Source of the DNA: a virus
Length of the DNA: 39,294 bases
UHGV virus genome: UHGV-0210057
Direction: 5' to 3' (one strand)
Positions 3,056 through 30,893 of the stretch are shown piece after piece. A program made the position numbers and the translations under genes. The stretch's first letter is position 1. Every line of letters starts with the position of its first letter. The notes under the pieces were generated by a model, which worked only from the letters and a program-made list of their open reading frames with translations, was not told the DNA's origin and made no database searches.

Positions 3056-3082
3056 AGCCCGCATAAGTGCGGGCTGCTTTTT
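3056..3082. terminator. Rho-independent terminator after emrE (bidirectional, shared with the convergent esterase gene)
   Basis: AGCCCGCA-TAAG-TGCGGGCT hairpin followed by GCTTTTT; the T-run overlaps the esterase stop codon. Confidence 0.6.
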
Positions 3083-4124
3083 ACAGGTCAGCGTTTGTTT
3101 TTTGTTGTTGGGTAGCGGTTTTTATGGGGGTTCCCAGTTTTTTAGTAAACCACTCAACAACTCTGTTTATAATAATTGGCTGATACCATGTATTATCGCC
3201 ATGCTCAGCCCCTTCTACCAGAACGTACTCAGCGTTATCGCCGTTCTTCTTCAACATCCTGAATAGTTTGGCGCTTTGCTCAGGTGAAACCAGAGTGTCT
3301 TTGCTACCATGCATAATAAGAAATGGGGGTTTTACTCCTTTCATATGTCCGATTGGACTGGCGTTTAGCGCTTTTTCTTTTGACGCTGTTATGGGGGCTC
3401 CCGCAAAACTTCTGAATGCAGGGCCATTGATCATTAAGGCTTCGGTTACGGCAGGAGATCGATGAACCTCCTGCACAGATTCAGGGAACCCCTCGCCAAT
3501 ATTCAACAAGTCAGAAATCCCATAAAGTGTGGCAACTGCCTGAACATCTGCTGATTGCTGAAGAAAGTCACCTTTATCAAAGGTTTTGTCACCATTTGTA
3601 GTTCCCATCATCTGGGCAAGCCATCCACCGGCAGAGTCACCCAGAACTCCGATTCTTTGAGGATCAATCCCATAATCGCTGGCATGTTCTCTCAAGTAAC
3701 GTATTGCAGCTTTCCCATCCTCAACTGGTGCTGGAAATGTATCAGGAATTGTTCTGTATTCTACAGCGGCCACAACAAAACCAGCTTCAGCCAGAGCCAT
3801 TCTCATTTCAATAAATTTGTCATGTTCAGAAGACATGAATCCGCCGCCGGGATAATAAATAATGGCTGGTTTTAAATCATTTGTTCGTGGGACAAGAACT
3901 GACATGTGAAGCTGTCTGACAGAACGAGTTCCTTTTATCTGGGAATAAACAACATCACCAATGAGATCGACCTGGTTTCTGGTCGGTGAAACACTAATGA
4001 TATCTGCACCCGGGGTGTAACCAGGAAGATTAGTCTGGACAGGTGTTGCACAACTCCCGACCGACATGGCCATTGACATACCATACAATAGTGTTGCAGA
4101 TGATAATATCTTGTTAATTTTCAT
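3081..4124 (-). CDS. Secreted or lipoprotein alpha/beta-hydrolase (esterase/lipase-like)
   Basis: 347 aa; N-terminal signal peptide with possible lipobox (MSMAMSVGSC); GDSAGG nucleophile motif and HGSKD; opposite strand to flanking phage genes with its own terminator (moron organisation). Confidence 0.75.
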   Translation of the reverse strand: MKINKILSSATLLYGMSMAMSVGSCATPVQTNLPGYTPGADIISVSPTRNQVDLIGDVVYSQIKGTRSVRQLHMSVLVPRTNDLKPAIIYYPGGGFMSSEHDKFIEMRMALAEAGFVVAAVEYRTIPDTFPAPVEDGKAAIRYLREHASDYGIDPQRIGVLGDSAGGWLAQMMGTTNGDKTFDKGDFLQQSADVQAVATLYGISDLLNIGEGFPESVQEVHRSPAVTEALMINGPAFRSFAGAPITASKEKALNASPIGHMKGVKPPFLIMHGSKDTLVSPEQSAKLFRMLKKNGDNAEYVLVEGAEHGDNTWYQPIIINRVVEWFTKKLGTPIKTATQQQKTNADL

Positions 4125-4571
4125 GTTTTACATGCCTTGACTTATCGGATGAAATTCTCTTACTGAATTTAACGGCAGTTTAATAGCCGTACAACTCGTG
4201 GTAGCTAGGGAAATATCCCAGTCGTGGTTAAGGTTGTACTTGACGGCTATTATTTCAACAATGCTTAAAGTGAGAGCTTAAGGTTATGCGTATGTTTTAC
4301 AGTCCGAGTAGATTCTGACCAATAGCTTCTTTGTATGATTCTGTCAGAAATAAATCTTGGCTTGCATGAAGTTTGAGACCTTATCTTGTTTGATTATGAA
4401 TAATCAATTCGCCATAATTGTATCACCGGAGCCTGAACAACTTCGGTGACTTCTGCGCTAAACGGGGACGTTTATGCGCACACACAATCCAAACTCTCTT
4501 CTCCCTTCACAGATGCAGAAATGCACCTGCGTTTTTTTGCATCCAGCGTCTGACCTCTGTGGAGGTGAAGC

Positions 4572-5027
4572 GTGAACCTACCACAAGATGGCATCAAACT
4601 GCATCGCGGTAACTTCACCGCTATCGGTCAGCAGATCCAGCCTTATCTGGAGGACGGCAAATGCTTTCGCATGGTGCTTAAACCGTGGCGCGAGAGACGC
4701 AGTCTTTCCCAGAATGCACTTAGCCACATGTGGTACAGCGAAATCAGTGAATACCTCATAAGCAGGGGGAAATCGTTCGCTACTGCAGCATGGGTAAAAG
4801 ATGCTCTCAAACACACATACCTCGGTTATGAAACCAAAGACCTGGTTGATGTCGTAACCGGTGAAATCACCACTATTCAGTCGTTACGCCATACCTCCGA
4901 TCTTGATACCGGAGAGATGTATGTCTTCCTGTGTAAGGTTGAAGCCTGGGCGATGAATATTGGCTGCCACCTGACTATTCCGCCGAGCTGCGAGTTCCAG
5001 CTGCTGCGCGACAAGCAGGAGGCGTAA
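4572..5027 (+). CDS. ybcN: NinB-family recombination protein (YbcN-like)
   Basis: 151 aa, GTG start with GGAGG RBS; [15 protein letters not shown]... and RSLSQN motif match DLP12 YbcN / lambda NinB as recalled. Confidence 0.8.
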
Positions 5028-5197
5028 TGGCTACACCGATTATTCGTGTCATGAACGGGCACATTTACAGAGTACCAAATCGTCGTAAGCGTAAACCTGA
5101 GCTGAAGCCTTCCGAAATACCAACACTGCTCGGATATACCGCCAGCCTGGTTGATAAAAAATGGTTGCGACTGGCAGCAAGGAGGAATCATGGCTGA
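5027..5197 (+). CDS. ninE: NinE-like protein
   Basis: 56-aa ORF (below the ORF-track cutoff) [32 protein letters not shown]..., translated by hand; TAATG overlap with ybcN stop. Confidence 0.7.
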   Translation: MATPIIRVMNGHIYRVPNRRKRKPELKPSEIPTLLGYTASLVDKKWLRLAARRNHG

Positions 5198-5480
5198 TTT
5201 GAGAAAAGCAGCGCGTGGTCGGGAATGCCAGGTAAGAATCCCTGGCGTATGTAATGGCAACCCTGAAACGTCTGTACTGGCACATATCCGGCTGGCTGGA
5301 TTGTGCGGCACCGGTATTAAACCGCCAGACCTTATTGCCACCATTGCCTGTTCTGCCTGTCACGACGAAATCGACCGCCGCACGCATTTTGTCGATGCTG
5401 AGTACGCAAAAGAATGCGCGCTGGAAGGTATGGCGAGAACGCAGGTTATCTGGCTGAAAGAGGGGGTAATCAAGGCGTGA
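5190..5480 (+). CDS. ybcO: YbcO-like (DUF1364) putative nuclease
   Basis: 96 aa from [23 protein letters not shown]... with Cys-rich motif; ATGGCTGA overlap with ninE stop. Confidence 0.75.
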
Positions 5481-5839
5481 ATACTTACCACATCACACTA
5501 CCCTGGCCGCCGAGCAATAACCGCTACTACAGGCATAATCGCGGGCGCACGCACATCAGCGCAGAAGGGCAGGCATACCGTGATAACGTCGCCCGAATCA
5601 TTAAAGGCTCAATGCTGGATATCGGTCTGGCTATGCCTGTGAAAATCCGCATTGAGTGCCACATGCCGGATCGCCGTCGCCGTGACCTGGATAATCTGCA
5701 AAAAGCCGCTTTTGACGCACTCACTAAAGCAGGTTTCTGGCTGGATGATGAGCTGGTCGTTGATTACCGCGTTGTGAAGATGCCTGTTACCAAAGGTGGG
5801 AAGCTGGAACTGACCACTACTGAACTGGGAGATGAATGA
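5477..5839 (+). CDS. rusA: RusA Holliday-junction resolvase
   Basis: 120 aa from a GTG start ([26 protein letters not shown]...), near-identical to E. coli RusA as recalled; GTGA overlap with ybcO stop. Confidence 0.85.
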
Positions 5840-5934
5840 TGTTTGAGTCTTATATGGCAGAACGTCTTCGCCGCCGCTGGGTGCGCCTGCGCTTATATCG
5901 TTTTATTGATTTTTGCTGGCAATTGGCGTGCTAG
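5836..5934 (+). CDS. Small YlcG-like ORF
   Basis: 32-aa [35 protein letters not shown] overlapping the rusA stop, in the DLP12 ylcG position; too short to be certain. Confidence 0.4.
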
Positions 5935-5957
5935 CCTGATTTTTGTGGGGAAAGTTG

Positions 5958-6341
5958 ATGCGTGATATTCAGATGGTTCTTGAGCGTTGGGGGGCATGGG
6001 CGGCTAATAACCACGAGGATGTAACCTGGTCATCCATTGCTGCCGGTTTTAAGGGATTAATTCCTTCAAAAGTAAAGTCTCGCCCACAATGCTGTGATGA
6101 TGACGCGATGATTGTTTGTGGATGTATGGCTCGCCTGAAAAAGAACAATAGCTATTTGCATGATTTACTAGTGGATTATTATGTCGGGGGTATGACATTT
6201 ATGTCACTGGCAAGTAAGCATTGTTGCTCTGATGGTTATATCGGGAAAAAGTTACAGAAGGCTGAGGGAATAATTGAAGGGATGTTAATGGCATTAGATA
6301 TACGGTTAGAGATGGATATCGTTGTTACTAAGTCTAATTAA
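5958..6341 (+). CDS. quuD: Late-gene antiterminator Q (phage 82/21 QuuD-like)
   Basis: 127 aa from [22 protein letters not shown]... with Cys-rich zinc-binding region; located after the nin genes and before the lysis genes. Confidence 0.8.
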
Positions 6342-6366
6342 TACGCTAATTATTTACTAAGTGTTA

Positions 6367-6393
6367 TTAAAAAAGGGGCGTAGAAACGCCCCC
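6367..6393 (-). terminator. Intrinsic terminator for the convergent porin transcript
   Basis: GGGGCG-TAGAAA-CGCCCC hairpin; on the minus strand it is followed by a TTTTTT run. Confidence 0.5.
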
Positions 6394-6482
6394 AAAAATA
6401 AAGGGTAATATATAACAGAAGGTTTATATAGTCAGAAGCAAGGTAGTGCTTCTAAAGGAAGTGGCTTGAGGGAGCCACTTAT

Positions 6483-6520
6483 ATGTTGGGGAGGCAAAGC
6501 CTCCCGCAACATATCTTTTT
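6483..6520 (+). terminator. Intrinsic terminator downstream of Q (tR'-like position)
   Basis: ATGTTGGGGAGGC-AAA-GCCTCCC(G)CAACAT extended hairpin followed by ATCTTTTT, about 140-180 nt after the Q stop, the spacing expected for a PR'-to-tR' leader. Confidence 0.5.
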
Positions 6521-6530
6521 CGTAACCAGA

Positions 6531-7628
6531 TTAGAACTGGTAAACCAGTCCTACGGCAACGATGTCGTCAGTGCTTACACCAAGTGCTTTAGTGAAGTCG
6601 TTTTTGTCAAGCAGGTTGATCTTGTAATCAACGAAAGTAGACATGTTTTTGTTGAAGTAATAAGTTGCACCTACATCAACATATTTGACTAAGTCCTGAT
6701 CGCCCCATACTCCAAGATCCTTACCTTTAGATTGCAGGTAAGCAACGGACGGACGCAGACCGAAATCGAACTGATATTGTGCAACAGCTTCGAAGTTTTG
6801 AGCTTTATTAGCAACGAAGTGATCAGCAAATACAGTCATATTCTGGGTTTCAGAATAGGTAGTGGCCAGGTAAATGTTGTTAGCGTCATATTTCAGACCT
6901 GCGGCCCAAATTTCTGCATTTTTACCGGAAGCAAATACTTCAGGAAGAACTTTGCCTGCATTGACTTGAGTGTCGGTACGATCAGATTTCGCATAAGTCG
7001 CACCAATGCCGAATCCTTCGTATTCATAGGTAGCAGAGAAACCGAATCCATCACCGTTACCTTCGGTGTAGTTATCGAAATCGCTACGATCGTTTTTACC
7101 TTGGTACTGAGCAGCAAAGTTCAGACCATCAACCAGACCAAAGAAGTCGTTGTTACGGTAAGTTGCAACACCAGTTGCACGTTGAGTCATGAACACGTCG
7201 GTTTGAGTCCAAGTATCACCACCGAATTCTGGCAGGACGTCAGTCCACGCACCGATGTCGTATGCTACACCGTAGTTACGACCGTAATCGATGGAACCGT
7301 AGTCACCGAATTTCAGGCCTGCAAATGCAAGACGGGTTTTGTCTTTGGCGGAACCTTGAGATTCAGCGCGGTTGCCTTTGAATTCATATTCCCACTGACC
7401 GAAACCAGTCAGTTGATCGTTGATTTGGGTTTCACCTTTGAAGCCCAGACGAACATAAGTAGTATCACCATCATCTGCATCGTTAGAGGAAAAGTAGTGC
7501 TTGGCATTAACTTTCCCGTACAGATCCAGCTTGTTACTGTCTTTATTATAAATTTCAGCTGCCTGAGCAGACATCGCCATCAGTACTGATGCAGCTACAG
7601 CAGAAATTGCCACTGTTAATTTTTTCAT
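6531..7628 (-). CDS. nmpC: OmpC-family general porin (NmpC/Lc-like), apparently intact
   Basis: 365 aa from [23 protein letters not shown] signal peptide; AEIYNKD..LDLYGK start, porin motifs and C-terminal ...VGLVYQF; same position and orientation as nmpC in DLP12. Confidence 0.9.
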
Positions 7629-7706
7629 CGTGAGCCCTTTTTTTGAACTATTATTAAAAAATGATGTCACTGCGCGATAAATATTCATCTAATCAATATG
7701 ATTATT

Positions 7707-8753
7707 TCAAGATGTTGTATGGGTCCACCACATATTGCAATTTTTATTCTCTTTTAAAATATATTCCACGGGCGTCATTAGTGCGAGCGCCTTGTGGGGT
7801 CTTTTGCTGTTATACAGCACCAGATATTCCGCCAGCTTCTGGTTAAATAGCGCCAGATCTTCAAAGAGTAAAATCTCATTAAATTCAATAAACTGCTCTC
7901 TTAACGTCCGGTTAAAACGTTCACAGATAGCGTTCATTTTTGGCGTGTAGGGATAGGTCCAGAGGTGTTTGATAGCGGCTTCCTGCAGCGTTTTGTCGAA
8001 GTTTCCCAGGAACTCTTTTCCGTTATCTGTGATTATCTGGCTGATACCGACCGGGAACAACCGGGCTGCGCGGCTGAAGAAGTGATTGACGATATCACTG
8101 TTGAGTGACGGCACAGCCAGCGCCAGCGCGTAATTGCTGCATTCGTCGATCATGGTGATGACATAGCGACGCAGTTCGCCCATTCTGAGCTCAATGGCGT
8201 CCATCCCAATGAGCTCACCTGTCTTTACCGGGCGGTAGTGCTTTGGCCTGCGGGGTTTGGCAGACCGCTTTTTGACAAGCAGTGCCTTCCCCCGCGATCC
8301 CAGACGCACAGGTATCATCCGCATTTTATCATGTGCGGCAGCGATCATTCTGCCGATGGTGGAAACACTCGGACAGGCCAGATAGCGCTGTTCGCACCAG
8401 GGCTTCAGGCGAACAAAAATCTGCTCTTTACCGAGGTTCGGCAGCTCTGTCCTGAGGCGTCGAATCTCTTTCAGCACATCGGGATGCCAGTGTTTTTTTC
8501 GTCGCACCAGAGGTGCCTTACTGTGCGGGATTAGCCCCTCAGGTCCTTCCTTGTTCAGTAACTGACGCCACCAGTAAAGCGTGCGGCAGGACACGCCAAA
8601 GGCTTCAGAAGCTGCAGAAATACCGTGTTTATCCCAGAAGTGCAGAGCCTTCATTCTCATTGTTGCTATATCAGCCATCACTGAAAGCCTCAACGCATAA
8701 TCGGCCGTTTGGTAGTACTTAGGATAGCCAACCATCAGATGCTGCATTTGCAT
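7707..8753 (-). CDS. IS transposase (single ORF with N-terminal HTH and rve/DDE integrase core; IS481-family-like)
   Basis: 348 aa; rve-type catalytic region (ITDNGKEF...YTPKMNAICERFNRTLREQ...YNSKRPHKAL); AAGGGGAG RBS before the start. Confidence 0.8.
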   Translation of the reverse strand: MQMQHLMVGYPKYYQTADYALRLSVMADIATMRMKALHFWDKHGISAASEAFGVSCRTLYWWRQLLNKEGPEGLIPHSKAPLVRRKKHWHPDVLKEIRRLRTELPNLGKEQIFVRLKPWCEQRYLACPSVSTIGRMIAAAHDKMRMIPVRLGSRGKALLVKKRSAKPRRPKHYRPVKTGELIGMDAIELRMGELRRYVITMIDECSNYALALAVPSLNSDIVNHFFSRAARLFPVGISQIITDNGKEFLGNFDKTLQEAAIKHLWTYPYTPKMNAICERFNRTLREQFIEFNEILLFEDLALFNQKLAEYLVLYNSKRPHKALALMTPVEYILKENKNCNMWWTHTTS

Positions 8754-8815
8754 AGTGCAATCTCCCCTTACTTATCCGGAGGCAATTGCAATATCTCTGT
8801 GAACTTACACAGATG
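7711..8815 (-). mobile_element. Insertion sequence (IS481-family-like), boundaries approximate
   Basis: Imperfect terminal inverted repeats with identical 11-bp core ATATTGCAATT at 7732-7742 and its reverse complement at 8784-8794; element about 1.1 kb with one transposase ORF; exact ends and target-site duplication not resolved. Confidence 0.55.
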
Positions 8816-9316
8816 TAAGTTTTAGTTTCTCATTTAATTTGTGAAGTAGATCTCTATTTTTATCTGAACTTTTTCTATCGAAACCTATTTATGGCTCTTA
8901 TTTGAACAAAAATAAACCTATTAGCTAATTTATATTAATGGCTGTTATTTATGGTGGTTCTATAATTCGGAAGTTTAATTTAAATCAACTAAAAATAACG
9001 TCGGAAATTATTTATTGGTTATTTGTTGAGGTTTTCTTATGTATTTGTGGTGGTGTTTTGAACACTCGGTAGCATTCTCATAAATATCATTCAGTGGTTT
9101 ACGTACGTAAAAAATTGGTTATGCTGTTAAGAGTGGTTACTTCGTCACACAGCTTAAACCCGCCGTCGAGCTGGTTTTTCCATTTTTTGAGTCTCGATAT
9201 TAGCTGATAACTCAATACCTGAGTTATTCATTGACTCCGAGTCTGTTACGTTTCTGCTTTTTTGCGATACGTTGTATTCCCTCAATTTACACCCGCTTTG
9301 TCTGCGAGGTGGGGTT

Positions 9317-9532
9317 ATGAAATCCATGGATAAGTTAACAACGGGTGTCGCCTATGGCACCTCAGCAGGTAGTGCCGGTTACTGGTTTTTACAGCTGCTC
9401 GATAAAGTCACGCCCTCACAGTGGGCAGCAATAGGTGTGCTGGGTAGCCTGGTATTTGGCCTGCTGACGTACCTGACAAACCTTTATTTCAAGATTAAAG
9501 AAGATAAGCGCAAGGCTGCGAGAGGTGAATAA
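9317..9532 (+). CDS. essD: Class II holin (pinholin, phage 21 S21-like) with dual-start motif
   Basis: 71 aa MKSMDK... with two TM segments; Met1 and Met4 give an antiholin/holin pair; GAGGTGGGG RBS; stop overlaps the endolysin start. Confidence 0.85.
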
Positions 9533-10029
9533 TGCCTCCATCATTACGAAAAGCCGTTGCTGCTGCTATTGGTGGCGGAGCAATTGCTATAGCATCAGTG
9601 TTAATTACTGGCCCAAGTGGTAACGATGGTCTGGAAGGTGTCAGCTACATACCATACAAAGATATTGTTGGTGTATGGACTGTATGTCACGGGCATACAG
9701 GAAAAGACATCATGCTCGGTAAAACGTATACCAAAGCAGAATGCAAAGCACTCTTGAATAAAGACCTTGCCACTGTCGCCAGACAAATTAACCCGTACAT
9801 CAAAGTCGATATACCGGAAACAACGCGCGGCGCTCTTTACTCATTCGTTTACAACGTGGGTGCTGGCAATTTCAGAACATCGACGCTTCTTCGCAAAATA
9901 AACCAGGGTGATATCAAAGGCGCATGTGATCAGCTACGTCGCTGGACATATGCTGGCGGTAAGCAATGGAAAGGTCTCATGACTCGTCGTGAGATTGAGC
10001 GTGAAATCTGTTTGTGGGGTCAGCAATGA
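9532..10029 (+). CDS. rrrD: SAR endolysin (T4-lysozyme-like, phage 21 R-like)
   Basis: 165 aa; N-terminal Gly/Ala-rich signal-anchor-release segment ([18 protein letters not shown]) followed by a lysozyme catalytic region (EG..Y.D..GV.T.C.GHT). Confidence 0.85.
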
Positions 10030-10463
10030 ACAGAGTAACCACGATTATCTCCGCTCTGGTTATCTGCATCATCGTCTGCCTGTCATGGGCTGTTAATCAT
10101 TACCGTGATAACGCCATCGCCTACAAAGAGCAGCGTGATAAGGCCGCATCCATTATCGCTGACATGCAGAAACGGCAACATGATGTAGCAGAACTCGACG
10201 CCAGATACACAAAGGAGCTTGCTGATGCTAACGCGACTATCGAAAGTCTCCGTGCTGATGTTTCTGCTGGTCGTAAACGCCTGCAAGTCGCCGCCACCTG
10301 TGCAAAGTCAACGACCGGAGCCAGCAGCATGGGCGATGGAGAAAGCCCAGGACTTACAGCAGATGCTGAACTCAATTATTACCGTCTCCGAAGTGGAATC
10401 GACAAGATAACCGCGCAGGTTAACTACCTGCAGGAATACATCAGGACGCAATGCCTGAAATAA
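10026..10463 (+). CDS. rzpD: Rz i-spanin
   Basis: 145 aa from [18 protein letters not shown] (N-terminal TM) with coiled-coil periplasmic region; ATGA overlap with the endolysin stop. Confidence 0.8.
10219..10410 (+). CDS. rzoD: Rz1 o-spanin lipoprotein, embedded in the +1 frame of Rz
   Basis: Small ORF wholly inside Rz with lipobox (LLVVNAC) and proline-rich segment ([13 protein letters not shown]); exact start codon uncertain. Confidence 0.65.
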
Positions 10464-29714: not shown

Positions 29715-30893
29715 TTACTGAAGTTTTCTTCTTGTGTATGTTAGTACATTAAATTTTTTAAACTTACTACACGGTGTCTCAATATATCTAAAACATAGCA
29801 ATGATATAAGCGTGATAAACCCAGAGAGGATTATAATAATAGCTGAAAATACAAGGCTGTTAATTTGATTAACATAGCTAACCGGAAGTATTATTTTAAA
29901 TGTTATAAAAAGTATAATGCCATGTAGAAGATACATGCTATATGTAGCTTCTCCAAAAACTTGACAGGTTTTTATCTTAAGAACTCCAAAAATATCGCAT
30001 CCATTTGATATCAGAATAAATGCAATACCACAGAGTGATATTGTTATTGGATTGTAAGGATTTGGAATTAAAAAACAAGTTACACATAAGATAACGATAA
30101 CGAATAAGCTTGATAATATTTTATTGAAAGGCAAGCTGTTAGGCAGTTTGTGATTTATTTTTGCTGCCAGATAACCAAAAACAAATGATAAAATATGTAT
30201 TTTTAATGATGGATAGAAAATAAAAGCAAATACACTCGCAATACTAAGAATTGTGTAAGTATTAAATTTGTCTCTTCTCATTATAAAAGCCATAAAAGGA
30301 AGAGATAAATAAAAAAACCATTCATAAACAAGTGACCACGGAACTCCGGCCATGATAAGCGACGTCTTGTGAAGACCGTTAACATCAGGCATTCCAAGGA
30401 AAGAAAAAGGAACCCATCTCGCCATAGATATTATGAGATTGGCAATTCCTGTGTTAATTTTCCAATCAGAAACATAGAACACAATTATGAATAGTAGAGA
30501 TAACGAAACCAGATACATAGGTGTTAGTCTCATTATTCTTGACCAAAATAAATCTTCCCAATTTACTGATTTATTCGAAATCAATTTCCCGAAGAACAAG
30601 AAGCCTGTAATCATAAAAAAGAAAATAACAGCTATTTTCCCAATATTAGTATAAAATAACGAATCAGGATCAGACCAAACTCCAGTATGTATGTATTGCC
30701 ACCAGAAACTGGAATGATGAAGGAAAACCATTAAAGCAAGAAATCCTCTAAGCCCATCAATTGATTCACTCCTTCCTTTGATAGGTGATAAGTGTGTTTC
30801 TGTGACAAATATTCTTGCAACCGAAAGTGAAGTAATCACCGATAAAGAAGCAATTAAAAAGCCATTAAATCCGTCAAACATAGAAATCTCCAT
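29715..30893 (-). CDS. Acyltransferase-3 family membrane protein (O-antigen acetyltransferase-like, Oac/OafA type)
   Basis: 392 aa, multiple TM helices, N-terminal motif R..S.DGLRGFLALMVFLHH typical of acyltransferase-3; strongly AT-rich; located between tailspike and integrase as in Sf6. Confidence 0.85.
   Translation of the reverse strand: MEISMFDGFNGFLIASLSVITSLSVARIFVTETHLSPIKGRSESIDGLRGFLALMVFLHHSSFWWQYIHTGVWSDPDSLFYTNIGKIAVIFFFMITGFLFFGKLISNKSVNWEDLFWSRIMRLTPMYLVSLSLLFIIVFYVSDWKINTGIANLIISMARWVPFSFLGMPDVNGLHKTSLIMAGVPWSLVYEWFFYLSLPFMAFIMRRDKFNTYTILSIASVFAFIFYPSLKIHILSFVFGYLAAKINHKLPNSLPFNKILSSLFVIVILCVTCFLIPNPYNPITISLCGIAFILISNGCDIFGVLKIKTCQVFGEATYSMYLLHGIILFITFKIILPVSYVNQINSLVFSAIIIILSGFITLISLLCFRYIETPCSKFKKFNVLTYTRRKLQ

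Follow-up and report, generated by a model that had tools for sequence, protein, structure and literature searches.

A close described counterpart of the locus studied here is nmpC in the DLP12 prophage of Escherichia coli K-12, a prophage gene for an Lc/NmpC-type porin that lies between Q and the lysis genes and has been struck by an insertion sequence (IS). Comparison with K-12 bore out the statement of the original prediction that IS5 lies in the 3′ end of nmpC; it breaks the coding sequence after codon 346, and the protein is destroyed. The insertion of an IS beside a promoter is a known and ordinary kind of event. IS insertions occur in the promoters of ompK36 and ompK35 in Klebsiella and of ompC and ompF in E. 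coli, and the activation of bgl by IS1 or IS5 is an example of IS-mediated promoter rewiring. In these cases, as at the present locus, the IS lies within the promoter or between the promoter and its upstream control, and the coding sequence is untouched. They are backed by phenotype and expression data. The present allele appears to keep its core promoter exactly intact.

Two related porin genes provide further comparisons. The lc gene of phage PA-2 (J02580; Blasband et al. 1986) encodes a protein with 98% identity to the porin described here and shares its upstream region with two CRP sites and its 3′ UTR (93%), but it carries no IS, and therefore its CRP sites are contiguous with the promoter. 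The ompD genes of Salmonella, Citrobacter and Enterobacter (75-78% protein identity) share a CRP-like site, a conserved block upstream of the -35 hexamer and the -35 motif TTGAA(A/C), and their G start is at the equivalent position; in contrast, they are chromosomal, their 5′ UTR is 69 nt rather than about 46 nt, and their CRP site is about one helical turn farther from the -35 hexamer.

Here, we analysed a 39,294-nt stretch of viral DNA (UHGV-0210057, hereafter the window), in which the porin upstream region is near-identical to that of K-12 nmpC over the proximal 135 nt. Unlike nmpC::IS5, the inserted element belongs to another IS family and lies outside the gene, at the edge of the putative -35 hexamer, and the porin protein is intact (Table 1).

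Table 1. Features of the porin-holin region, in window coordinates
Feature	Position	Strand	Details
Late antiterminator Q gene (QuuD-like), adjoining the porin cassette on its upstream side	5943..6341	+	Pfam Phage_antitermQ, E 1.6e-53
Porin 3′ UTR	6366..6530	-	Intrinsic terminator at its end: stem 6393-6374 plus T run (terminator scan)
Lc/NmpC/OmpD-type porin gene, intact	6531..7628	-	365 aa; signal peptide; Porin_1 full length
Putative porin 5′ UTR, ~45-47 nt	7629..7675	-	Start G 7675 or G 7673; ompD alignment
Putative -10 hexamer GAATAT	7681..7686	-	Score 7.2; aligns with A/T-rich -10 of ompD orthologues
Putative -35 hexamer TTGAAA	7705..7710	-	Homology, promoter score, primer placement
Transposase ORF, 348 aa	7707..8753	-	HTH and rve domains; co-oriented with and upstream of porin
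Target-site duplication AGATGT, porin-side copy	7710..7715		Empty-site comparison; -82 to -87 from start codon
IS481-family insertion sequence, 1,095 bp	7716..8810	-	Empty-site comparison; identical copies elsewhere
Terminal inverted repeat TGTATGGGTCCACCACATATTGCAATT	7716..7742		At 3′ end of transposase gene
Terminal inverted repeat AATTGCAATATCTCTGTGAACTTACAC	8784..8810		At 5′ end of transposase gene
Target-site duplication AGATGT, distal copy	8811..8816		Empty-site comparison
AT-rich intergenic region, original porin upstream region displaced by the IS	8817..9316		25-40% GC; collinear with Rb-50, K-12, PA-2
Proximal CRP-binding site ATAGAGATCTACTTCACAAAT	8837..8857	-	misc_binding in PA-2 record J02580; 0 mismatches in window
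Distal CRP-binding site CTGTGTGACGAAGTAACCACT	9132..9152	-	J02580 annotation; 0 mismatches in window
Holin gene (EssD / phage 21 S type); the first of the lysis genes, following the IS on the late-operon strand	9317..9532	+	Pfam Phage_holin_2_1, E 2e-35

The porin gene and the inserted element

The porin open reading frame (6531-7688, minus strand) matches Pfam Porin_1 over positions 1-337 of 337 (E = 2.5e-156) and scores 530 bits against the NCBIfam model of the OmpC porin subfamily (cut-off 484). The start at 7688 is an artefact of ORF calling that places 20 extra codons before the annotated gene; the true start is the ATG of MKKL at 7628, in agreement with the RefSeq and PA-2 record annotations. 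The protein is 100% identical to the porin of E. coli Rb-50 and ends in VYQF, with an aromatic last residue, and it can be assigned as a predicted full-length 16-strand general porin of the Porin_1 or OmpC/OmpF/PhoE superfamily. Its gene is an accessory gene of lambdoid-phage type, placed antisense between the Q and holin genes, a layout shared by DLP12, Rb-50, PA-2, phage 434 and others, and the order of Q and the porin gene equals that of DLP12 and Rb-50.

Downstream of the coding sequence, the porin 3′ UTR has 93% identity to the K-12 and PA-2 sequence following nmpC and lc, and its predicted fold is strongly structured (-63.9 kcal/mol). We take it to correspond to the region where ipeX was mapped in K-12 and PA-2; the link between ipeX and the nmpC/lc 3′ UTR is said to go back to Castillo-Keller et al. 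in 2006. IpeX was not recovered as an Rfam family, with no meaningful Rfam match within 5800-9600. It is named among the regulators of ompC (PMC5745476).

The ends of the IS were set against the empty site of Rb-50, TTTCA-AGATGT-AAGTTT. The window and Rb-50 are collinear (98.7% over 3400-7715 and 8811-10289), the sole structural difference is a 1,101-bp insert, and the single AGATGT of the empty site is present twice in the window. IS481 itself makes a 6-bp target duplication, and perfect 6-bp duplications were found at nine other sites of the same IS. A 3-bp duplication, in which the right-hand AGA would be part of the IS, was ruled out by the 6-bp duplications ATACTC and ACACAG elsewhere, which lack AGA. 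The element is bounded by imperfect terminal inverted repeats of about 27 bp, which contain a perfect 11-bp core, ATATTGCAATT. IS481-family ends start with TGT, which is found at the very tip of one end of this IS and one base inside the tip of the other.

The transposase matches the Pfam families rve, rve_3 and HTH_32/28, and its top NCBIfam model by far is transpos_IS481 (221.6 bits, E = 1.5e-65), a score just under the curated cut-off of 224. An identical transposase is labelled “IS481 family transposase” by RefSeq, and the length of 1,095 bp fits the size class of this family (about 1-1.3 kb with terminal inverted repeats). The transposase ORF has no stop codon inside the IS; its TGA (7707-7709) is flanking sequence that overlaps the putative -35 hexamer. 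ISKpn28, also of the IS481 family, has the same length class and a single transposase with HTH and DDE domains, and the two elements align over their full length. However, the nucleotide identity is only about 75%, and the IS in the window is therefore distinct from ISKpn28. The 75%-identical element is tagged “IS481-like element ISKpn28 family transposase” by RefSeq.

Identical copies of the IS (0 mismatches over 1,095 bp) are found at unrelated sites, in five E. coli chromosome or plasmid loci and in one viral contig, which indicates that the insertion is recent. Copies that span at least 80% of the element are present in 1,073 genomes, at up to 38 places per genome (for example, NZ_CM130730.1), and judging by its copies the element is currently active. 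The target-site duplication and the IS-free allele support the view that the insert is a bona fide IS481-family IS.

These results agree with much of the original prediction. It had placed an IS481-like element at about 7711-8815, some 80-100 bp upstream of the start of an apparently full-length porin gene, and had proposed comparison with IS-free alleles; the exact ends are 7716 and 8810, between AGATGT repeats and 87 nt from the ATG, the porin is complete by its Porin_1 match, its YQF end and its identity to Lc, and the comparison yielded the Rb-50 empty site with collinear sequence on both sides. It had also taken the AT-rich non-coding DNA at 8820-9316, beyond the IS, as plausibly the original regulatory region of the porin gene, and this is borne out by the low GC content, both CRP sites and collinearity with Rb-50. 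The insertion, the intactness of the porin and the separation of its upstream DNA are not a chance pattern.

The porin promoter and its displaced upstream DNA

A strict promoter scan found no promoter upstream of the porin gene in the IS-bearing or the IS-free allele, and a custom position-weight matrix scan was therefore used. The top score in the proximal region (7.2) was that of TTGAAA-18-GAATAT; an equal or better score occurs about 0.3 times per 100 nt. We also aligned 19 upstream regions, that of the window and those of 18 chromosomal ompD orthologues. In the alignment, a conserved TTGAA(A/C) is separated by about 18 nt from an A/T-rich -10, and a G follows; TTGAA(A/C) is kept in 18 of the 19 regions (the exception is a Klebsiella outlier). 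In one Salmonella ompD the distance from the homologous G to the ATG is exactly 69 nt, which equals the published length of the Salmonella ompD 5′ UTR (-69 to +3; PMC3333887).

The published account of the nmpC promoter, PnmpC, gives its start as a “G” and classes it as a typical sigma-70 promoter; primer PnmpC-T-P1 served there to insert a terminator “downstream of PnmpC” (PMC11677980). The homology arm of this primer maps to -90 to -40 and includes the -10 GAATAT. The porin start was placed by homology and primer design rather than by primary mapping, and the core promoter appears to sit between the IS and the ATG. The end of the IS is 5 nt from the putative -35 hexamer, and TTGAAA is unbroken because the target duplication ends with the T that opens the hexamer. 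The IS would split an alternative promoter that has a -10 AATAAT at -78 to -73 and starts at G -66; this model is disfavoured by the ompD alignment and by the primer arm ending at -40, and under it the annotated CRP site would fall at -52.5, a non-canonical position.

The non-coding DNA at 8817-9316 carries both CRP sites annotated in PA-2. In the IS-free allele, the proximal site is centred at about -71.5 from the putative start, and it is now 1.1 kb farther away. A block homologous to the proximal site, GATCnnGATCACA, is conserved upstream of ompD. PnmpC is stated to be activated by CRP and repressed by OmpR, IHF and MprA, with the degree of CRP dependence taken from a secondary statement (PMC11677980). 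The IS separates the porin gene from most of the regulatory DNA that lay upstream of it, and both CRP sites are on the far side.

Probable effect on porin expression

The explanation that we favour, and hold to be probable as a whole, is a recent IS insertion that spared the core promoter and uncoupled the porin gene from CRP. In a P22-like temperate phage or prophage, an IS481-family element recently transposed between the porin and holin genes. It duplicated AGATGT and came to lie at the upstream edge of the putative -35 hexamer of the porin promoter. The coding sequence and its structured 3′ UTR remain joined to the putative core promoter and 5′ UTR, while all sequence upstream of the -35 hexamer is shifted by 1.1 kb, with GC-richer IS DNA in its place. 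The shifted DNA comprises a CRP site in a class I position, the second CRP site and the AT-rich region. With CRP activation lost, porin transcription would be reduced and no longer under catabolite control, RNA from the 3′ UTR of the same transcript would fall together with the porin, and weak read-through from the transposase gene may add a low constitutive component. The likely outcome is weaker, CRP-uncoupled expression of the porin, and of IpeX from the 3′ UTR, rather than silencing.

The original prediction had proposed IS-mediated silencing or rewiring of the porin gene, a view with which a promoter lying wholly within 7629-7710 would conflict. The insertion is independent of the K-12 IS5 event and cuts off the upstream DNA, as proposed, and the IS lies within or next to the porin control region. 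However, the core promoter (-35, -10 and G start) lies wholly in that interval, being retained at 7673-7710, and as placed here it is neither disrupted nor replaced by the IS. Silencing is unsupported, and a loss of activation, or rewiring, fits better because these elements are still attached to the gene. The displaced AT-rich region could also have had a silencing role, and the insertion would then increase porin expression.

The original prediction also offered an outward promoter carried by the IS. In the broader form of this reading, which we regard as unlikely, transcription from the transposase promoter or from an outward promoter at the IS end continues into the porin gene, whose expression is kept or raised without CRP. 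Such promoters are known for IS481 in Bordetella. The transposase and porin genes lie on the same strand, the transposase ORF exits the IS to its stop codon in the flank, and the terminator scan found no terminator-like site between the two genes, so that read-through into the porin gene is possible. The outward matches at the IS end, TTGCAA-17-CAACAT (5.8) and TGGACC-15-AATAAT (5.2), are weak; scores of this size occur at chance frequency, about 0.9-1.3 per 100 nt. In addition, no convincing sigma-70 promoter for the transposase gene was found at 8754-8810, and IS transposase promoters are generally weak.

Somewhat less probable again is a neutral insertion, in which the core promoter gives near-normal expression and the IS is a recent, selectively irrelevant hitch-hiker that used a preferred target sequence. 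The insertion leaves the core promoter, UTRs and coding sequence untouched, and since the site obeys the CAA(N5) target rule of the IS, it can be explained without selection; the absence of the allele from 5,426 genomes is as expected of a young allele that is neutral or mildly deleterious. However, the spacing of the CRP site is conserved, a block directly upstream of the -35 hexamer, GAAACTTAnTTATTGAA, is conserved in the ompD orthologues, and the promoter is reportedly activated by CRP (PMC11677980).

The main effect could instead fall on the phage, since the order Q, porin (minus strand), IS, holin-lysozyme-Rz places the IS in the late-operon leader from Q and pR′ to the holin gene. The IS could then reduce or delay expression of the lysis genes on induction, an effect compatible with the other readings, and it would also be met by transcription from a plus-strand start seen in K-12 (at about 7661 in the window). 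A terminator-like hairpin (8796-8813, plus strand) is built from the IS end and the duplication, and a strong Cappable-seq plus-strand start in K-12 lies at U00096.2 position 576081. By our own arithmetic conversion between genome versions, this is 33 nt upstream of the start codon of nmpC, on the other strand. We regard this reading as improbable: in lambdoid phages, Q-modified RNA polymerase passes terminators, and even in IS-free relatives it crosses an antisense porin cassette of about 1.9 kb.

Rarity, target preference and significance

The IS-porin junction was found in none of 5,426 complete E. coli genomes, in no metagenome contig or phage record, and at none of the 41 copies of the IS in viral contigs. 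The porin promoter site is uninterrupted in nearly all E. coli records that carry it (3,122 of 3,134). These results show that the insertion is rare and not recurrent. E. coli B was considered as a precedent for an IS at the porin promoter and was rejected, as the site is intact in BL21(DE3).

The target rule of the IS, CAA(N5), is orientation-specific, 5′-CA|A(N5)-3′. On the transposase strand it reads N5-cTTG(A/C)(A/C)A, mimicking the -35 hexamer of sigma-70 promoters. A doubtful but wider idea is that the position of the insertion is no accident and that the IS docks repeatedly at the upstream edges of -35 hexamers, co-oriented with the downstream gene, with the porin as one example. If so, the stop-less transposase ORF would borrow the TGA of TTGA, and promoters would be systematically uncoupled from their upstream activators and left downstream of a transposase gene. 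The target rule itself, if true, predicts the landing sites of a widespread E. coli IS and is the more general by-product of this work.

Porins of the Lc/NmpC type are lysogenic-conversion genes that alter outer-membrane permeability and the available phage receptors, and IpeX, the 3′ UTR RNA of these porins, lowers OmpC and OmpF. An allele with the core promoter and without adjacent CRP sites would be a natural promoter-dissection mutant, and its contrast with the 99.8%-identical IS-free allele would give the share of porin and IpeX output owed to the upstream region. The allele is a further example of IS traffic in the accessory regions of prophages.

Insertion site and porin gene

E. coli strain Rb-50 carries an IS-free allele of this phage region and is collinear with the window, with 98.7% identity over window positions 3400-7715 and 8811-10289. 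The sole structural difference is the presence of 1,101 additional bases in the window. The empty site in Rb-50 reads TTTCA-AGATGT-AAGTTT, and the occupied site reads TTTCA-AGATGT-[1,095 bp]-AGATGT-AAGTTT; therefore, the IS extends from 7716 to 8810 and is flanked by a 6-bp target duplication (7710-7715 and 8811-8816). This comparison, together with the Pfam match of the porin described below, confirmed the original prediction of an intact porin next to an IS, whose coordinates had been off by no more than 5 bp. Inverted repeats of ~27 bp bound the IS; they match imperfectly overall but share a perfect 11-bp core, ATATTGCAATT. The top NCBIfam match of the transposase is the IS481 transposase model (221.6 bits; cut-off 224), and identical proteins are named 'IS481 family transposase' in RefSeq, while the closest named relative of the IS is ISKpn28 (~75% nucleotide identity). 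Over its 1,095 bp, the IS is matched without a mismatch by copies in one viral contig and five E. coli chromosomes or plasmids, all at unrelated sites. Among 5,426 complete genomes of E. coli, 1,073 contain the IS or a close variant. Taken together, the empty site, the duplication and the identical copies elsewhere show that the insertion is real, recent and due to an active element. A variant of the IS (93-94%) is fixed at a single place in the chromosome, 70 nt upstream of yegH, and also occurs on many F-type plasmids; frequently labelled a pseudogene, it supplies most of the 1,118 records with 90-95% identity.

The porin ORF matched the Pfam porin domain over its whole length (1-337 of 337, E 2.5e-156). 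As in RefSeq and the record of phage PA-2, the porin starts at the MKKL ATG at 7628 and has 365 aa; the 20 further N-terminal codons of the ORF are a product of ORF calling. The protein shows 100% identity to the Rb-50 porin and 98% to PA-2 Lc, and matches the K-12 NmpC fragment at 343 of 346 positions; judged from its sequence, the gene is intact. Its 165-nt 3' UTR is highly structured, with four or five hairpins (-63.9 kcal/mol), is closed by an intrinsic terminator, had no Rfam match, and is 93% identical to K-12 and PA-2 sequence. Castillo-Keller et al. in 2006 reportedly mapped the porin-inhibiting RNA IpeX to the K-12/PA-2 counterpart of this 3' UTR. IpeX is named among the regulators of ompC (PMC5745476).

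The window represents the genome of a P22-like temperate phage (P22 coat protein, portal, tailspike with head-binding domain, integrase) with a late-control region of the lambdoid type. Apart from the transposase gene, the gene order of this late-control region is also that of the K-12 cryptic prophage DLP12, Rb-50, PA-2 and many lambdoid phages. An accessory BD-FAE/alpha-beta hydrolase gene lies in the nin region (3081-4124, minus strand), as one does in Rb-50, and an accessory Acyl_transf_3 acyltransferase gene adjoining the tailspike (29715-30893, minus strand) is likely an O-antigen-modifying conversion gene.

Coordinates of features in the window and of the places at other loci (L handles) where an IS copy has a toxin gene nearby
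Feature	Coordinates	Strand	Remarks
rusA	5414-5839
Antiterminator Q	5943-6341
Porin 3' UTR	6366-6530	minus
Intrinsic terminator	6393-6374	minus	closes 3' UTR
Porin ORF	6531-7688	minus	after Q
Inferred start G	7675 or 7673	minus	homology to ompD
Inferred -10 GAATAT	7681-7686	minus	homology to ompD
Inferred -35 TTGAAA	7705-7710	minus	homology to ompD
Transposase ORF	7707-8753	minus	between porin and holin; single ORF, 348 aa, HTH and integrase-core domains
Phage-21-type holin	9317-9532
Lysozyme	9532-10029
Rz			after lysozyme
IS-toxin gene, L131	1495-1617
IS-toxin gene, L132	1495-1651
IS-toxin gene, L133	1495-1665
IS-toxin gene, L088	~1405-1564
IS-toxin gene, L134	1495-1810

Porin promoter and displaced control DNA

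How the insertion is to be read depends on the position of the porin promoter. The 200 nt upstream of the porin ATG were aligned with chromosomal ompD orthologues from Salmonella, Citrobacter, Enterobacter and relatives. In all of them, a CRP-like GATCnnGATCACA block is followed by a GAAACTTAnTTATTGAA block, strongly conserved, that ends in the -35 hexamer TTGAA(A/C); after a spacer of ~18 nt come an A/T-rich -10 and then a G. The promoter architecture of ompD is the same as that of the window porin. At the Salmonella ompD locus, the aligned G lies exactly 69 nt ahead of the ATG, which equals the published ompD 5' UTR of -69 to +3 (PMC3333887). The nmpC promoter, PnmpC, is described as a typical sigma-70 promoter with a G as its 5'-RACE start, and primer PnmpC-T-P1 served to put a terminator 'downstream of PnmpC' (PMC11677980). 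The homology arm of this primer, acttacatcttgaaataatcacattgattagatgaatatttatcgcg..agtg, spans -90 to -40, which places the promoter within that stretch. Our weight-matrix scan ranks TTGAAA-18-GAATAT first among the sigma-70 matches of the proximal region, with a score of 7.2 (scores as high occur ~0.3 times per 100 nt in the window). Since the ompD homology, the PnmpC publication and the promoter score agree, we infer that the core promoter lies between the IS and the porin gene. The IS would therefore abut the -35 hexamer, which is left intact because the last base of the duplicated target is the first T of TTGAAA, and the core promoter, 5' UTR, coding sequence and 3' UTR appear still to be one unit. 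Cappable-seq of K-12 lists a strong start on the plus strand (U00096.2 position 576081). By our arithmetic, this start is 33 nt ahead of the nmpC ATG but on the other strand, and it corresponds to A 7661 of the window, which is preceded by a -10 TATTAT (7649-7654); a transcript from ~7661 heads to the holin and in the window would meet the IS after ~55 nt.

Two CRP-binding sites are annotated upstream of lc in the PA-2 GenBank record, and both recur in the window with zero mismatches on the far side of the IS (8837-8857 and 9132-9152). In the allele lacking the IS, the centre of the proximal site is at ~-71.5 relative to the inferred start, a standard class I activating position for CRP. CRP activates PnmpC through two operators, and OmpR, IHF and MprA repress it (PMC11677980). 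The conserved block just upstream of the -35 is broken by the IS, with 6 bases given back by the duplication, and the GC-richer IS end takes the place of native A-rich DNA at -36 to -60. The 20-mer CTTACATCTTGAAATAATCA (window 7691-7710 and 8817-8820, minus strand; -90 to -71 in the IS-free allele) crosses the insertion point and overlaps the block conserved upstream of all ompD orthologues; it is likewise broken, 6 of its bases being restored by the duplication, and it matches the ompC C1 OmpR-binding site at 15 of 20 positions. The proposed separation of the porin from its regulatory region thus holds for the upstream control DNA with the CRP sites but not for the core promoter, which is still joined to the gene; because the proposed core promoter falls within 7629-7710, a location named beforehand as one that would refute the prediction, silencing is not supported.

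Expected effect on porin expression

It is nearly certain that a recent transposition left the porin gene and core promoter intact and shifted all upstream control DNA 1.1 kb away. That the native start now lacks CRP activation and porin output is lower is, on balance, probable, the direction and size of the effect being less sure than the structure. Porin transcription would still begin at the native start with CRP activation lost, and the porin and 3' UTR RNA, which share a transcript, would be made at a reduced, glucose-insensitive level. Transposase transcripts may contribute a little porin RNA, because the terminator scan found no terminator between transposase and porin.

It is unlikely that the IS itself drives the porin: the two genes are co-oriented and the transposase ORF extends beyond the IS to a TGA at 7707-7709, but promoter-like sequences facing outward in the IS end score 5.8 and 5.2, values reached at chance frequency, and the transposase has no clear promoter of its own in the scan, which leaves the IS-borne promoter suggested earlier unsupported. 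That porin expression is unaffected by the IS is less probable still. A chief effect on the late operon, although compatible with the other readings, is improbable. The IS does separate Q from the holin, and a plus-strand terminator-like hairpin is formed by the right IS end together with the duplication, but Q-modified polymerase should ignore such a hairpin.

Target preference and rarity of the allele

Among 26-27 distinct left junctions of the IS, which include that of the window (IS ends at 7702-7716 and 8810-8816), 20 have CAA at -8 to -6 from the IS end, as do 10 of 10 sites with a perfect 6-bp duplication, where the duplication is A plus five bases with CA just before. Read along the transposase strand, the flank is N5-cTTG(A/C)(A/C)A, with A or C as the first base after TTG in 18 of 20 and as the second in 15 of 20, and A as the third in 11 of 20; as a motif, it resembles a sigma-70 -35 hexamer. 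These junctions provide solid support for an orientation-specific sequence preference. No stop codon of the transposase ORF lies within the IS, and targets reading TTGA supply TGA, which in the window overlaps the porin -35 hexamer; the annotated transposase extends further at L084 and L088, which have TTGC in the flank.

Several copies of the IS lie 47-104 nt upstream of the co-oriented starts of the porin, an O-antigen ligase gene, yhjE, cvi, mepK, yegH and an SdiA-regulated gene. The opposite end of four copies adjoins a divergent type I toxin gene (ldr, hok, hokD, timP), with the transposase-5' end 7-15 nt from the toxin start codon for ldr, hok/gef and hokD and ~190 nt for timP, a pattern suggesting that control regions of toxin-antitoxin RNAs have been hit repeatedly. 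Docking of the IS at promoters is only a lead. Six of the sites were picked by BLAST with the window flank in the query, which biases them to the window's own flank, and in the viral-contig sample a co-oriented ORF start lies within ~120 nt at only 3-4 of 16 distinct junctions, two of these being doubtful (one junction apparently rearranged, one inside an open frame).

None of the 5,426 complete E. coli genomes has the IS at the porin site (at least 80% coverage of a 3-kb or 311-nt junction query at one place), and the 301 nt spanning the insertion site occur in 3,134 E. coli records, 3,122 of which have them unbroken. The junction 30-mer gave zero matches among the metagenome contigs searched, the porin-site flank was found at 0 of 41 viral-contig copies of the IS, and the porin-IS junction was absent from the phage records searched. 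The IS-bearing porin allele is rare and non-recurrent. In K-12 nmpC::IS5, the same gene family is affected, but by a different IS and inside the coding sequence, and PA-2 lc, with its annotated CRP sites, is the IS-free prototype. IS insertions in porin and other promoters are a well-known class; the allele is new, and the type of event is already known. The insertion would gain significance if its effect on expression were unexpected or if the target rule reflected a general promoter-docking behaviour.
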